A stretch of DNA of 64,000 bases, taken from assembly GCA_964016885.1 (NCBI GenBank), contig OZ024747.1:75330001-75394000 (forward strand). Direction: 5' to 3'. The position numbers and the translations under genes were made by a program. Below are positions 566 to 54,239 of the stretch, piece after piece (within the stretch, counting starts at the first letter, position 1; the number at the start of each line of letters is the position of its first letter). Under the pieces are notes generated by a model that worked only from the letters and a program-made list of their open reading frames with translations, did not search any database and had not been told where the DNA came from. This DNA comes from Eledone cirrhosa. Its lineage: Eukaryota.

Positions 566-767
566 GGATATAAAATCTTCTATACTTTGAATCCAGATCT
601 CCCTATTATTCTCTGGGACCACAAGACCCACAACAATGGCCAGAATAAAGTGGACACGCTTGTAAACTTGAAAACAAACAGCACATATACTATAAATATA
701 TTAGCCTTTTCTAGTGCTGGTGAAGGCCCACTTTCAGAAGAAATTCAAGTAATGACAAATCCTGGAG
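566..767 (+). CDS. Lar: LAR-family RPTP exon, C-terminal half of FN3 repeat 2
   Basis: tttttgcag|GGA acceptor and GAG|gtaatg donor; phase 0 to 1; 202 nt. Translates GYKIFYTLNPDLPIILWDHKT...YTINILAFSSAGEGPLSEEIQVMTNPG, matching the FN2 pattern of Lar/PTPRF (GYxVYYT...W...AFT..G.GP.S...QV). Confidence 0.93.
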
Positions 768-5912: not shown

Positions 5913-7935
5913 CAAAATATGCTTATAGTACCCTGAATAGTCATAACAACAAAATATGCTTATAGTACCCTGAATAGTCACAACAACAAAATATAATTAT
6001 AGTACTCTGAATAGTCACAACAACAAAATATACTTATAGTACTCTGAATAGTCACAACAACAAAATATACTTATAGTACTCTGAATAGTCACAACAACAA
6101 AATATACTTATAGTACTCTAAATAGTCACAACAACAAAATATGCTTATAGTACTCTGAATAGTCACAACAACAAAATATACTTATAGTACTCTGAATAGT
6201 CACAACAACAACAAAATATACTTATAGTACCCTGAATAGTCACAACAACAAAATATACTTATAGTACTCTGAATAGTCACAACAGCAAAATATACTTATA
6301 GTACCCTGAATAGTCACAACAACAAAATATACTTATAGTACTCTGAATAGTCACAACAACAAAATATGCTTATAGTACTCTGAATAGTCACAACAAAATA
6401 TGCTTATAGTACTCTGAATAGTCACAACAACAAAATATACTTATTGTACCCTGAATAGTCACAACAAAATATACTTATAGTACTCTGAATAGTCACAACA
6501 ACAAAATATACTTATAGTACCCTGAATAGTCACAACAACAAAATATACTTATAGTACTCTGAATAGTCACAACAACAAAATATACTTATAGTACTCTGAA
6601 TAGTCACAACAACAAAATATGCTTATAGTACCCTGAATAGTCACAACAACAAAATATACTTATAGTACCCTGAATAGTCACAACAACAAAATATACTTAT
6701 AGTACCCTGAATAGTCACAACAACAAAATATACTTATAGTACTCTGAATAGTCACAACAACAAAATATGCTTATAGTACTCTGAATAGTCACAACAACAA
6801 AATATACTTATAGTACTCTGAATAGTCACAACAACAAAATATACTTATAGTACTCTGAATAGTCACAACAACAAAATATGCTTATAGTACCCTGTATAGT
6901 CACAGCAACAAAATATGCTTATAGTACTCTGAATAGTCACAACAACAAAATATGCTTATAGTACTCTGAATAGTCACAACAACAAAATATACTTATAGTA
7001 CCCTGAATAGTCACAACAACAAAATATACTTATAGTACTCTGAATAGTCACAGCAACAAAATATACTTATAGTACCCTGAATAGTCACAACAACAAAATA
7101 TACTTATAGTACCCTGAATAGTCACAACAACAAAATATACTTATAGTACTCTGAATAGTCACAACAACAAAATATACTTATAGTACCCTGAATAGTCACA
7201 ACAACAAAATATACTTATAGTACCCTGAATAGTCACAACAACAAAATATACTTATAGTACCCTGAATAGTCACAACAACAAAATATACTTATAGTACTCT
7301 GAATAGTCACAACAACAAAATATACTTATAGTACTCTGAATAGTCACAACAACAACAAAATATACTTATAGTACTCTGAATAGTCACAACAACAAAATAT
7401 GCTTATAGTACTCTGAATAGTCACAACAACAAAATATACTTATAGTACTCTGAATAGTCACAACAACAAAATATACTTATAGTACTCTGAATAGTCACAA
7501 CAACAAAATATACTTATAGTACCCTGAATAGTCACAGCAACAAAATATACTTATAGTACTCTGAATAGTCACAACAACAAAATATGCTTATAGTACTCTG
7601 AATAGTCACAACAACAAAATATACTTATAGTACTCTGAATAGTCACAACAACAAAATATGCTTATAGTACTCTGAATAGTTACAACAACAAAATATGCTT
7701 ATAGTACTCTGAATAGTCTCAACAGCAAAATATACTTATAGTACTCTGAATAGTCACAACAACAAAATATACTTATAGTACCCTGAATAGTCATAACAAC
7801 AAAATATACTTATAGTACTCTGAATAGTCACAACAACAAAATATACTTATAGTACTCTGAATAGTCACAACAGCAAAATATACTTATAGTACTCTGAATA
7901 GTCACAACAACAAAATATACTTATAGTACCCTGTG
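5913..7935. repeat. 37-bp tandem minisatellite, about 54 copies
   Basis: Unit CAAAATATACTTATAGTACTCTGAATAGTCACAACAA repeated head-to-tail, with A/G and T/C dimorphisms and variable CAA count; degenerate longer units continue to about 8012. Confidence 0.97.
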
Positions 7936-9778: not shown

Positions 9779-9811
9779 TTCCCGTGAATAATAAACCCGT
9801 TATATTTGGTC
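9779..9811 (+). CDS. Lar: Candidate 33-nt alternative mini-exon of Lar (VPVNNKPVIFG)
   Basis: tgtttcag|TTCCCGTGAATAATAAACCCGTTATATTTGGTC|gtaagt; consensus donor; phase 1-1 matches the host intron; open frame. Confidence 0.7.
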
Positions 9812-9908: not shown

Positions 9909-9920
9909 TGCTCCTATATG
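9909..9920 (+). CDS. Lar: Weak candidate 12-nt microexon (xLLY)
   Basis: ctttatacag|TGCTCCTATATG|gtgcat; frame-preserving phase 1-1, but the donor is weak. Confidence 0.25.
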
Positions 9921-10094
9921 GTGCATGTTGCTGCATATTTTTTAAAATATTTTTAGTAGCCTGAAGTCCTGTAGATTGTGACTTTCAAATATCTTCCGAC
10001 AGTTTTGAACTGGCCTTTTGTTTTTTTGCATCAGTTATTACTTGTATCAATTTTGTCTAGCGTACGTACATGTAACAAAAAAAAAAAAAAAATT

Positions 10095-10227
10095 TTGCGC
10101 TGCCGCTACTACTGCGAAGATGCCAGCATGCTTGCCCTTTGCTTTGATCTGCTGCCTGCTGCTGCTGCTGCTGCTGCTGCCGACGCGTTGCACTGCGCGA
10201 TCGTTACAAATCAGTTTCTTTCTGCAG
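10095..10227 (+). promoter_or_regulatory. GC/CpG-rich, YGCY- and (CUG)n-rich intronic element upstream of the 42-nt candidate exon
   Basis: Abrupt GC-rich island in an AT-rich intron with a (CTG)n run at about 10149-10180; complementary to 24506-24559. Confidence 0.5.
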
Positions 10228-10269
10228 CGATGGATGGACTGAATTTTACCATACATCCTGATATTGCAC
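10228..10269 (+). CDS. Lar: Candidate 42-nt alternative mini-exon of Lar ([14 protein letters not shown])
   Basis: tttctttctgcag|CGATGGATGGACTGAATTTTACCATACATCCTGATATTGCAC|gtaatc; phase 1-1, open frame, protein-like composition, contains an N-F-T sequon. Confidence 0.6.
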
Positions 10270-10448
10270 GTAATCCAACTTGGGTTAACCAGTCCAGTCT
10301 TTGTCCATTGCCGTGTTTTTTTCCGAGTGATCCTCCTACTGTTTTCCTCCCTTTCTTTCCGATGGAACTATGCACATTTTATTTCAGTATTATCAGTAAA
10401 TGTTCGCGTACATGCATATAATATATATATATGTGTATATATATATAC

Positions 10449-13916: not shown

Positions 13917-14295
13917 ATATATATATATATATATATATATATATTGATATATATATATATATATATATATTGATATATATATATATATTCACTTACTATA
14001 GGCTAAGAATCCTGTTACTGATATGTTTTCCAACTTGCCAATTTATATTATATTAACATTCAGCACACATGCAATTTAATAGAATGTTTAGAAAAAAAAA
14101 AAGAAGCAATATTTCGGTATTTTCATCCTAGTAATTTAATATGTATGTAAGGCATGATTGATAATTAATAAATGCGCGAGCGCAGCCTTTTTCTTTGCAA
14201 ATTATGTATAAACCATTGACCGCTAATTAACTCCACATCTTTTCTGTTCATTATACTAATCTTCGTTTTTCCTTTTTCCATCCATTGTCCTGCAG

Positions 14296-14301
14296 ATTCA
14301 G
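14296..14301 (+). CDS. Lar: Candidate 6-nt microexon of Lar (DS or HS depending on the upstream exon)
   Basis: Branch-point-like TACTAAT, long pyrimidine tract cttcgtttttcctttttccatccattgtcc, then tgcag|ATTCAG|gtgaga; strong acceptor and donor; phase 1-1. Confidence 0.72.
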
Positions 14302-14450
14302 GTGAGACCAATTACTAAACTTTCTAATTTCTTTTCAGCACATAATTTATGTATATATATGTATATATATATGTGTATATATATTTGTTAACCACTATCA
14401 TTAATTATTCATACATACATATACACACACGTTTGTGTATATATTTATAT

Positions 14451-24219: not shown

Positions 24220-24335
<116 letters not shown>

Positions 24336-24474
24336 TACATATCTAATTTAATGCAAGTTCCTTACTGAATCTACAAAATTGAACGCTAAGTATTTAACTT
24401 CAATAAATTATTATTGGTTTGGAAAATAGGATTCTTCTGTCTCATTTAAATTCTGCTGTTTGCTATGTTCATAG

Positions 24475-24620
24475 CTGTACTATTTGAGTGTACTTCGTGC
24501 CCCGCTTGCTGCGTTGTTGCGCGGCTATGGGTTGCAGCTGGTATCTTCCTAGCTAGCGCTCTGCTCTGCCAAACACGGAAGACCACCGCAGCGGTCTTCT
24601 TGCTGTTGCTGCTGCTACTA
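24475..24620 (+). promoter_or_regulatory. GC-rich YGCY-rich intronic island with alternative pairing elements; contains a weak 66-nt exon candidate
   Basis: GCTGGTATCTTC (24537-24548) is complementary to 10116-10127; local hairpin GAAGACC/GGTCTTC (24578-24599); catag|66 nt|gtatct is open in phase 1-1. Confidence 0.45.
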
Positions 24621-24778
24621 TAAATATTTTTTAAAAAATATGTTGCGTTAGATGCCCAGTGTCTAGGCTGCTACAAAATAGTATATAATTCATTTTTTTT
24701 TCCATTGACATAAAGGTCAGCTCAATAGATTTAAATGCTAACAAGAAACAAAAAAAGAATTACATATATATATATATG

Positions 24779-31958: not shown

Positions 31959-32196
31959 GTTTAAAGATAAGACTAAATATCTATTTTCTTAATTGGCACC
32001 AAAGTTTAACAGAAATCTCAGAAATAGAAAAGATGCTGTGGACTTATATTCTGTAATTCTTTATTGATTAGATTAAGTTTTGTCTGTAATATATTTTCTT
32101 TTTCTTTACAACAGGAACAAATATTTTCTTTAAAAAAAAACAACAAATTTTCTAATCTTTTTCTTTTTCTTTTTTTTCTTTTCTTCTTTCCTGCAG

Positions 32197-32481
32197 TCCC
32201 CCAACAGCCGAAAAACCTTCAAGCTCTTGCTGAGTCTGCAAATACTGTTCATGTCACTTGGGATCGACCAGATGCAATGGATAATATTGAGAGCTATGAG
32301 CTTTATTATAATGATTCTCACTACCGCCAGAATGTTCACATAAGTATTAAACCGCCAGTAATAAGTTATCGTTTAGTTGATCTAACACCTGATACAGTCT
32401 ACCATGTTCAAGTATCAGCTAAATCCTCACGTGGCGAAGGAGCACGTACTCCAACGATTCAAGTTAGAACGCCTCAGTTCG
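32197..32481 (+). CDS. Lar: LAR-family RPTP exon, FN3 repeat 3
   Basis: Long pyrimidine tract, ctgcag|TC ... TTCG|gtaagt; 285 nt; phase 1-1. VPQQPKNLQALAESANTVHVTWDRP...YELYYNDS...LTPDTVYHVQVSAKSSRGEGARTPTIQVRTPQF closely matches Lar FN3. Confidence 0.96.
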
Positions 32482-34415
32482 GTAAGTTGCTCTCATTTTA
32501 TTATAAATTCGATATATAGGTCAATATTGGGCCTTGAAACCTTAGGTAGTGCGTTTGTTCCATGTATGAACATAAATATATAATATAATATTCATGTATA
32601 TATATATAATACATTTTCAAAGACTTTATAATAAACCATCTTTGCTTATTCTTATTAAAATGTTCTATTTTCTTTACAGGAGGTTTTACAAGCTTATCAT
32701 TGAGTCTCCTTCTCTTTCAGAGTTTATTTGCTGCATAAAACAAATACTTTTATAATCCCTGACAAAATATATATTTATAATCCGTTTGCTTAACTTTTAT
32801 TTTCAGTCCTTTAAATAAATGATTTAAACTTGTTTCTCTACAGGTATTTTTGGGGTGGGAAAAAAAAAAAAAAAAAATTATCAAGAATTATGAGATGTAT
32901 GCAAAGAAAAGAAAGAAAAAATATATTTAGTTGCGTTTGGAATGAAATACATGCTTTTTGTATTCTCCATGTATTTATATGTGCAGTTATAGATATTTCA
33001 TCAAGTAGGGAAAAAAAGAAACCCGATGGAGGGTGGGGCATATCACATCTAAAATGTCTACAATGTTATTAGGTGTTTGTTAGAAATTCTGAATAAATTT
33101 ATTTCAGGTACCAAACTATGTAACTAATTAAAATACCAAACTACTATACTATTTACAAAACCAAACCTTTTTTTAAACTATTTTAAAACACAAAATATTA
33201 ATAATACTTTTACAGAATATTAACTCATAATATGACCATGGCTTTGAAGCCATTCCTCCAAAAACCACCTTCCTCTGATGATGCCTAAAATGTTAAGAAA
33301 CTAAAGATTGCTGAAGGTTTTAATGCTGTGTAATTGTGTAATATAATTTCTACAAATAAATAAAGTTTCCTATTTAAATGATAAAGTTTATATATAATAT
33401 TTATATATATAAATATATATATATATAGAGAGAGAGATCCACAACAATTACTAAACCATTGTGGAATTAATTCTATACTGAACTTCCCTTTGGACTGAAT
33501 GTTCTATTGACTTTGGATATAAACCTTCTGATTTTTCACCATTATATATATATATATAGTAAATCTTAGTAATGCAATAATAAAGCAACAAATTATTATT
33601 AAAAACATGTCTGTGAATCAAAATATGTCTAGTATCTTTACTAGTGGACAAATTTTATTGAAAATTTGTAGTAAACTCAAGATTTTTAATTTTTTTATGT
33701 AATGCAATCATAGTGCTATTTTGTAGTTTTTAAGAATTTAGTGTTAATATTGTTACCTGAAGTACAAACGTTAAGAGTTAACTAACAACATTGACATTTC
33801 AAAAGGATGTTTTTAAAAACTTACAATGTTAATTGTTTCAAGGTATTTTTATGGTAATATGAATAATTTAATTGTTTTATTTTAATTTTTTTTTTTACAA
33901 ATACCTTACTTAATTTAATGAAAATTGCTTGAATCAAACTAACAATGAAAATGTTCACACCACTTTTTATTTTTGCATTTTGCCCTTGAATTCAAATGAT
34001 ATAATGATAATTTTGGCAATTCTATGACATTTTCAATGATTTCAATCGAATCACAAACACACATGCATACACACAAAGACTTTATATACATACATAGAAT
34101 AAAATTAAGTAATATATAAAATACCTTGTGTTATCCCATATATTTCTCTCGCCCTGATACTTATGATCAGTTAGTTAATCAATAACCAATATCTATTATA
34201 ATCCCCATCATCGATGTTCTAGAAAGACAGTTGAAAATATCTTAGGAACTGACTACCAAGATTTTGGTTGTATATTTATTTTCTCCTGCCCTCCTACATA
34301 TCTTCAGAAATTGAGGTTTCACACCTTTTGTTTTACATCTTCAATATATGTCCTTTTTTACTTCTTTTTTTTTCACAGCTCTTTATTATTATTATTATTA
34401 TTGATATATACAAGG

Positions 34416-42555: not shown

Positions 42556-42864
42556 CCCCAGGTGCCCCTCCTTTGGCTGTCAGTGGTATTGCACTTGACT
42601 CACGCAGACTCAACATCACCTGGAAGCCACCACCCCCCACCAAACAAAACGGTAACATCACTGGCTATAAGATAATGTATGTTGAAAATGATGCTGGTAA
42701 AACCGAAAAAGATGCCTTAATAGTTAAAGTGGATGCTGATGTGAACTCTTACATACTGACTGACTTGTCTAAGTGGACTGTTTATAAAATATGGCTTCTA
42801 GCCTACACCAGCATTGGCGACAGTCCTTCATCCCAACCCATCTTAGTGAGCACTGAAGAAGATG
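42556..42864 (+). CDS. Lar: LAR-family RPTP exon, FN3 repeat 4
   Basis: ctcag|CC ... GATG|gtaggt; 309 nt; phase 1-1. APGAPPLAVSGIALDSRRLNITWKPPPPTKQNGNITGYKIMY...LSKWTVYKIWLLAYTSIGDSPSSQPILVSTEED, including the Lar-typical KWT.Y.IW and TEED motifs. Confidence 0.96.
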
Positions 42865-52653: not shown

Positions 52654-53927
52654 AATTTCCACATATATATATATGTATGTGTATGTGTGCATTGAAGTGT
52701 GTGTGTGTACAATTTCCATATATGTGTGTGTGTGTGCATTGAATAATGAAAACAAAACAAAAGTCAGAGATAGATAGTCAATCAGTTAGAAACCTATATA
52801 TATATATATACATACACACAGGCATACATATATATACATTTATACACTTACACATTAGATTAGTCACATAAACATTGAATTATTACATTTTGTTAATAAT
52901 TAACAAAGAACCATAACAGAAAATTGATACAATTGAGTGAATAACAATACTGTTTGCATTTGTGTGTGTGTGTGTGTATGCGTGTGTGAATTTATTTTAA
53001 TCAATAAATGGTCAATAGATGGTTCTGCTACGATACAACAGTATTTGTTTCACTCCACTTGATTTCACATCAAATTTCAAAATATATCTATACAACAAAA
53101 ATTCAATTAATAATTTAATTAAGAAGAAACAAAAAAACAATCCACCAAAGTTTTCATTATTAAGTTGTTAAATTTATGGTCTAATATTTCTCTCTCTGCA
53201 ACTGTTTCTTTGACATGGTGTTGGTTTCTAGCTTCTATATATTAATATTACCTTCATTTAATCAAAATTAGATTGAAAAACTTTTTTTTTTCTGTAATGG
53301 GATTTAAATGATGATTATTTATTCTTAAAGTGGGATATTTTACCATTATTTTAGCTGCATGGATGCTTTTCTTTTTATTATTAACTTCATTTATTCCTAT
53401 TTTATCTGTTTTCTTTCAATCCTTATGTAAGTATGGTTAGCTGTCTAATGTGTTTTCTATTAATTTTTTTTTTCAAATTATAATTTTTTATCCAATGTAT
53501 TATATTAAGCATGATATAAAAGATATCTGAGATGCTTTTTTCATAAATAAAAAAAAAATATTAAGTACAGTCTGATGTTAGTTAAGATCCTTTCTGTTTA
53601 TCTTAGTTTTTGTGATGCTAAACAATTTATGAATTCTTAGGAGTTAAGCATGTCATTTGTCCAGTTTTCTCATTAATGCATGTGCTACATTAGATCATGT
53701 GCTACATTAGATCATGTATGCATATACATGTATGACATATCCTACATTATTTTATTTTTGTCATAAATACTAACATTGATAATCTAAGAAATAAAAAAAA
53801 TAAGTTCTAGTGATAGTAAACTATTCTCTCCACTAACTACTACACTTAGCTCATGTTACATGTTAGTAAAACCACTAAATATACTGCCAGACTAATAGCA
53901 AGGATCTTACCCATCTTTACACTTTAG

Positions 53928-54239
53928 TTCCTGGAGAACCACGGAAAATACGAGCTGAAGCCATCAATTCTACTGCTGTGTTTATAGAATGGAGACATCC
54001 TTCATCAAAAAATAGGAATGGTATAATACGTGGTTATCAAATACAGTATGTTGAAGTAGATGACAATGATAATCCCTCAGGTGACCTCCGCATGACAGAT
54101 ACAACTGATGGCGATAAAACTGAGTATGTGATTACCAATTTAGAGCCGGACACTAGGTACCAGTTTTCTGTTGCGGCGTATACAAGGAAAGGAGATGGAA
54201 TAAGAAGCAGAGCAAAAATAGTGGAAACCAAAGGCGCAG
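53928..54239 (+). CDS. Lar: LAR-family RPTP exon, FN3 repeat 5
   Basis: actttag|TT ... GCAG|gtaacc; 312 nt; phase 1-1. VPGEPRKIRAEAINSTAVFIEWRHPSSKNRNGIIRGYQIQY...LEPDTRYQFSVAAYTRKGDGIRSRAKIVETKGA is a diagnostic Lar FN5 sequence. Confidence 0.97.

Follow-up and report, generated by a model that had tools for sequence, protein, structure and literature searches.

Vertebrate receptor tyrosine phosphatases of type IIa (LAR) carry mini-exons of 3-9 residues that decide synaptic partner binding (PMC8711739, PMC13080001). The mini-exons occupy four sites, namely meA in Ig2, meB between Ig2 and Ig3, meC in FN5 and meD near the membrane and D1 (PMC8711739). Site meA consists of two tandem cassettes (meA3 and meA6), which are used singly or together (PMC8711739), and meB, by extending a hinge, switches ligand binding in vertebrates (PMC8711739; PMC13080001). 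Additionally, a targeted mouse study describes, besides meA-D, a new microexon in the juxtamembrane region and eight Ptprd exons that are uncharacterized (PMC10883964), among which a vertebrate FN2-FN3 exon is possible. Targets of the eMIC splicing program are described as having a long AG-free zone, a strong CUAAY and a long tract (bioRxiv 10.1101/2021.02.24.432780), and 74-79% of SRRM3/4 targets have a UGC, although it is not strictly required (bioRxiv 10.1101/2024.09.17.613571). The eMIC program exists in non-vertebrate bilaterians (PMC8797185), and a 20-species splicing survey covers Octopus bimaculoides (bioRxiv 10.64898/2026.09.05.749416); the supplements of this survey may list the octopod exon described here.

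The window analysed is a stretch of 64,000 nucleotides from Eledone cirrhosa, in which ten coding blocks of the gene for O. sinensis XP_036361663.1 can be placed on the + strand in consecutive order. Judged from the encoded protein, the host gene is a LAR-type (IIa) receptor tyrosine phosphatase of this octopod, and its nearest solved structures are those of PTPRS, PTPRF and PTPRD. The two outermost exons in Table 1 correspond to the end of FN2 and to FN3 because, in the alignment with 4pbx, an Ig1-FN3 structure, this stretch of the protein covers residues 387-574. Within the span that separates them, the hexamer ATTCAG is very probably a real, alternatively spliced cassette exon in the LAR FN2-FN3 hinge, and it is best explained as the downstream member of a pair of phase-1 cassettes that are spliced independently in this span. 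What appears to be the ortholog of this exon is already present, as the residues ES or QS, in the database models of relatives.

Table 1. Exons and splice signals of the FN2-FN3 span (positions counted from the first letter of the window)
Feature	Positions	Strand	Basis
Exon ending FN2, phase-1 donor GAG/GTAATG	566-767	+	tblastn with octopod LAR protein P0022
Cassette exon A, 33 nt, phase 1-1	9779-9811	+	translation corresponds to the insert that 12 of the 17 octopod proteins have
Candidate exon of the sequence-only reading, 42 nt, doubtful	10228-10269	+	open and in phase
Branch-point motif TACTAAT, branch A at -37	14254-14260	+	sequence
Polypyrimidine tract, 32 nt, inside 108-nt AG-free zone	14261-14292	+	sequence
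3' splice site CAG	14293-14295	+	sequence
Microexon B, ATTCAG, 6-nt cassette, phase 1-1	14296-14301	+	sequence; putative ortholog ES/QS in RefSeq proteins
5' splice site GTGAGA; CAG/GTGAGA has the top score among five donors compared	14302-14307	+	
ACTAAAC (14314-14320) and CTAAT (14324-14328), 3' of the microexon	14314-14328	+	sequence
Exon encoding FN3	32197-32481	+	98% identity to O. sinensis XP_036361663.1; present in spliced contig of run X19

The splice architecture proposed in the sequence-only reading is borne out by the letters themselves, in that TACTAAT, the pyrimidine tract, ATTCAG, GTGAGA and ACTAAAC are all present. The exon is 6 nt long, which lies within the 3-27 nt of microexons and is a multiple of three, it is bounded by a canonical AG and GT, and the introns on its two sides measure 4.5-13.5 kb and 17.9 kb. 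Translation also confirms the frame that had been proposed, with D-S directly behind FN2, H-S when the 33-nt exon or the candidate of 42 nt comes first, and restoration of the Val of FN3. Recognition of an exon this short by the spliceosome would be made possible by the strong branch point, the long tract and the strong donor, probably with the help of a tissue-restricted factor. The ACTAAAC and CTAAT that lie 3' of the exon are possible STAR-family (QKI/SF1-type) half sites; ACTAAAC departs from the ACUAAY consensus, and CTAAY occurs at 1.9 per kb in the FN2-FN3 span and hence is not rare. A search of Rfam across 700-32300 returned 0 matches, and the predicted RNA fold of 14200-14345 is weaker than that of 198 of 200 shuffles, which indicates no structure.

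Between the flanking exons (768-32196, 31 kb), 62 sites have the form AG-N6-GT, and the donor of ATTCAG ranks first among them with a score of 8.1, followed by a runner-up at 1.0. ATTCAG is also the sole site of the 62 to read (D/E)-S-V. A loose scan of the + strand returned seven short-exon candidates, of which ATTCAG had the highest-scoring donor. A stricter composite scan returned one hit on the + strand (ATTCAG), none on the - strand and none in 100 block shuffles, with thresholds that were chosen after ATTCAG was known and with a generic donor matrix, so this control favours ATTCAG and is weighed lightly.

To place the exon among its relatives, 17 octopod proteins were examined, comprising two singletons and 15 proteins from the main cluster, which has 27 members. 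Four of these proteins have no insert at the FN2-FN3 junction, one has ES, six have a ten-residue cassette followed by L, and six have the cassette followed by QS. O. sinensis alone has all four classes, with skipping in P0029, ES in P0019 (XP_036361661.1), the cassette with L in P0016 and the cassette with QS in five proteins; in O. bimaculoides, the cassette with QS is found in P0003, the only one of the seven proteins of this species that has QS. The two residues are present in six of the eight O. sinensis models (isoforms X1, X4, X5, X7, X9 and X11, for example XP_036361661.1 and XP_036361657.1) and in XP_014773614.1 of O. bimaculoides. Inclusion is therefore seen in 7 and skipping in 10 of the 17 proteins, counts that describe the gene models of relatives only. 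The X isoforms of both species are computed RefSeq models and were compared at the protein level; RefSeq models rely on transcript alignments. The expectation that an exon this small is usually missed by annotation is contradicted, for the relatives, by the seven proteins that have the two residues. No FN2-FN3 insert of any kind is present in the one O. vulgaris protein, the one Argonauta protein or the four scorable cuttlefish-like Logan proteins.

From the 33-nt and 6-nt exons, the E. cirrhosa window predicts the same four classes. FN3 is predicted to start with Leu when exon A is included alone and with Val when the microexon follows, and V and L alternate likewise in the relatives. Only 12 of the 4096 hexamers give both E-S-V and Q-S-V, and two of these differ from ATTCAG at a single position; 164 of the 4096 (4%) lie as near to this set as ATTCAG does. 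The ES/QS forms of O. sinensis and O. bimaculoides share with ATTCAG the gene, the junction, the two-residue length, the V/L switch and the upstream cassette, whereas they differ from it in the second base (D/H in E. cirrhosa, E/Q in Octopus) and in the length of the cassette (33 nt in E. cirrhosa, 30 nt in Octopus). In light of this comparison, ATTCAG is taken as the ortholog of the exon behind the octopod ES/QS. A literature search that covered few subscription journals yielded no paper on the octopod ES/QS forms, on this exon or on the molluscan FN2-FN3 site.

Two Sepia pharaonis proteins (P0190 and P0193) also have D-S after FN2. They were rejected, as they continue with L-C-F into low-complexity sequence, unlike the expected read-through of the microexon, and they are treated as broken predictions in which the D-S match is a coincidence. 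A search of shorter proteins gave three matches among 44 candidates, none of which runs across the junction in spliced form.

The E. cirrhosa transcripts were approached through contigs from 4 of 24 runs, which were compared over 32040-32600 and followed from 32195 (32148-32194 was skipped as repeat). Each of the four runs has one contig over 32195-32481, and three of these contigs extend into the next exon. In run X19, a contig of 6648 nt has 0 differences to the FN3 exon and runs on into the next exon at 42556; because it joins these two exons, the LAR gene is transcribed and spliced. The matched AG at 32195-32196, directly upstream of FN3, fits the end of FN2 and the end of the microexon alike, and it argues only against the cassette-only form in these contigs. 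The contig of run X1 is exactly 287 nt long, which is a hint of branching upstream of the shared AG, but intron-containing molecules would look alike, and the hint was given no weight.

Further downstream, the FN4 exon (42556-42863) and the FN5 exon (53927-54238) are skipped in two O. bimaculoides models (P0003 and P0004), and FN4 is included in the contigs of runs X19, X13 and X7. At the start of the FN4 exon, six nucleotides (42556-42561) precede a GT with a donor score of 3.2, a possible cryptic donor that is probably unused.

Exon A is, on its translation, orthologous to the cassette that measures 30 nt in O. sinensis and O. bimaculoides, relative to which it has one extra Asn codon and a D>G replacement. 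Its donor is weak (1.3), its AG-free zone extends over 197 nt or more, and TGC occurs at -27 and -42; with respect to UGC, exon A resembles an eMIC target more closely than ATTCAG does. The 42-nt exon that had been proposed next to it is unsupported, with a donor score of -0.8, an AG-free zone of 11 nt and no branch motif within 80 nt, and two peptide motifs from it have no match in the stored proteins. The span also contains a tandem array with a unit of ~39 nt (~5930-7930) and two non-repetitive intronic islands (~9920-10370 and ~24320-24770) with 10-14 CpG and 14-23 TGC per 300 nt, the second of which includes a GAAGACC/GGTCTTC inverted repeat. Conserved splicing-regulatory elements are a possible reading of the two islands, which have no Rfam match.

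Beyond the octopods, small FN2-FN3 inserts are present in the LAR models of four Haliotis species, Pomacea, Babylonia, Gigantopelta, Biomphalaria glabrata, Liolophura, Ostrea edulis, Magallana gigas and the nemertean Lineus; in these taxa, exon boundaries are deduced from protein differences, and five rows are unscorable. The junction of Haliotis rufescens occurs in four forms, with no insert, APIFD, AGLP or both. In both Octopus and Haliotis, P(V)IFD closes the first cassette, and the single insert of Biomphalaria has the same ending. The comparison suggests that exon A is old, and the FN2-FN3 site as a whole may be a splice module of long standing in molluscs. No insert is found in any listed protein of Littorina, Physella, Patella, Lottia, Lymnaea, C. 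virginica, annelids and several single-model taxa. In a search of 50% clusters, 7 of 99 long matches have a scorable junction and none has an insert, which is too few to show absence outside molluscs. At other linkers, the octopod models (P0001, P0016-P0029) vary by ten residues between Ig1 and Ig2 and by five residues between Ig3 and FN1, and gastropod models are also variable at Ig1-Ig2; among the LAR proteins compared, no scorable row has an insert of the meA or meB type.

In the alignment with solved structures, the two-residue insert falls as a gap at the G/VP junction of PTPRS (4pbx), PTPRD (4yh7) and PTPRF (6tpw). According to the structural reports, FN3 of PTPRS folds back at the FN2-FN3 linker without a substantial interface (PMC4239663), FN3 is rotated by almost 180 degrees in a comparison of 4PBX, 4YH7 and 6TPW (PMC10815196), and the linker is a flexion point (PMC4239663, PMC10815196). 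Depending on which of the two cassettes are included, this flexible hinge would gain 0, 2, 11 or 13 residues, which would alter both the reach of the ligand-binding head (Ig1-FN2) and its angle to the stalk, for which meB at the Ig2-Ig3 hinge of vertebrate LAR-RPTPs may serve as a precedent. A measurable effect of the two residues alone has somewhat less than an even chance, and in an already loose linker the effect may be small. More speculatively, the added Ser could be a site of O-glycosylation.

With respect to regulation, three signals of the eMIC type are found at the microexon, namely an AG-free zone of 108 nt, a CTAAT at -37 and a tract with a pyrimidine fraction of 0.84 over 25 nt. 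These features do not discriminate well, as the acceptor of the constitutive FN3 exon is comparable (80 nt free of AG, branch at -42 and a pyrimidine fraction of 0.96). A UGC near the acceptor had been invoked as a hallmark of eMIC targets, an argument that is weak here, since only one TGC lies within 60 nt of the acceptor, at -5, as part of the TGCAG that is common to the acceptors of the constitutive FN2 and FN3 exons. The tract (14261-14292) contains no UCUC or CUCU. A 2019 paper reportedly extends the eMIC program to octopus. Neural Srrm234/eMIC would be the most likely factor, with about an even chance of being the right one.

The microexon may be real and yet be neither neural nor eMIC-controlled, being included broadly, or in muscle or another tissue through control of the QKI/HOW, Rbfox or MBNL type; we regard this as quite possible, if short of probable. 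Such control would agree with the lack of UCUC and of any UGC besides the acceptor's own, and the branch motif TACTAAT doubles as a STAR-family ACUAAY site, with a CTAAT 23 nt downstream of the exon. Broad inclusion would fit the six of eight O. sinensis models with the two residues, but counts of models are no measure of inclusion, and Rbfox control is opposed by the absence of TGCATG within 150 nt on either side of the microexon. Moreover, the AG-free zone, the CUAAY and the tract are all listed for eMIC targets (bioRxiv 10.1101/2021.02.24.432780), and a UGC occurs in just 74-79% of SRRM3/4 targets and is not indispensable (bioRxiv 10.1101/2024.09.17.613571). A more radical explanation, that ATTCAG is a decoy which is never used and that the ES/QS of the relatives arise through a modelling artefact or the use of an alternative acceptor 6 nt ahead of the FN3 exon, appears very improbable. 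It draws on the fact that ES/QS are known from computed RefSeq protein models; however, the window has no AG 6 nt upstream of the FN3 acceptor, where 80 nt are free of AG, and ATTCAG, the one 6-nt candidate to stand out across 31 kb, predicts the insert of the relatives to within one base.

If ATTCAG is spliced in, its two residues may still be neutral, in that a loose linker tolerates small exons that are gained and lost independently among molluscan lineages, which we consider possible but would not favour. The inserts at this site vary widely in sequence and in length (2 to 33 residues), several taxa lack them in every listed protein, with inserts in, for example, 0 of 7 Littorina, 0 of 9 scorable Physella and 0 of 9 C. 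virginica proteins, and the first of the two residues is not conserved among octopods. Conversely, the length of the exon, its frame and five of its six bases are the same as in the two Octopus species, the FN3 exons of which differ at ~2 of 94 residues, and the P(V)IFD of the adjacent cassette is also found in Haliotis and Biomphalaria.

The interpretation of ATTCAG as a frame-preserving 6-nt LAR cassette holds, its D-S/H-S and V/L matching the ES/QS forms of the relatives, whereas, among the other parts of the sequence-only reading, missed annotation is contradicted for the relatives, the UGC is not distinctive and the 42-nt exon is unsupported. Taken alone, the microexon corrects one gene model and shows that a 6-nt exon is callable from sequence. 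A bolder proposal, which we consider unlikely, is that a two-cassette module (exon A ending in P(V)IFD and exon B of 6-12 nt) dates from the ancestor of gastropods and cephalopods, is neural, and provides a combinatorial adhesion code as the molluscan counterpart of vertebrate meA/meB at a different hinge. If molluscs do place cassettes of their own in a different LAR hinge, they would offer a concrete, testable case of splice codes that serve neural wiring in parallel in invertebrates with large brains, and the microexon would then be a minigene substrate for tests of cephalopod Srrm234/eMIC.

A comparison with the described systems reveals both likenesses and differences. The inserts of gastropods, bivalves, the chiton and the nemertean lie at the same junction of LAR, and Haliotis rufescens follows the same two-cassette logic, but its second cassette has four residues of unrelated sequence, so that homology to the 6-nt exon would be positional only. 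Compared with the eMIC/Srrm234 microexons of Drosophila and the SRRM3/4 microexons of mammals, ATTCAG is likewise very short and in frame, with a long AG-free zone, a CUAAY and a long tract, and it shares a strong donor with the mammalian SRRM3/4 targets; it differs from both in having neither a separate UGC nor a UCUC. In addition, the fly targets lie in short introns, in contrast to the 4.5-13.5 kb and 17.9 kb that flank ATTCAG. The mini-exons of the vertebrate LAR-RPTPs are likewise in-frame ectodomain microexons of a type IIa (LAR) receptor phosphatase, with a comparable pair of cassettes in meA and an extended interdomain hinge in meB, whereas none of meA-D lies at FN2-FN3 or shows any sequence likeness to the octopod exon. 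By analogy, the octopod microexon would work like a LAR mini-exon, but it is not one of meA-D because its insert maps to the FN2-FN3 junction, outside the sites of these four.
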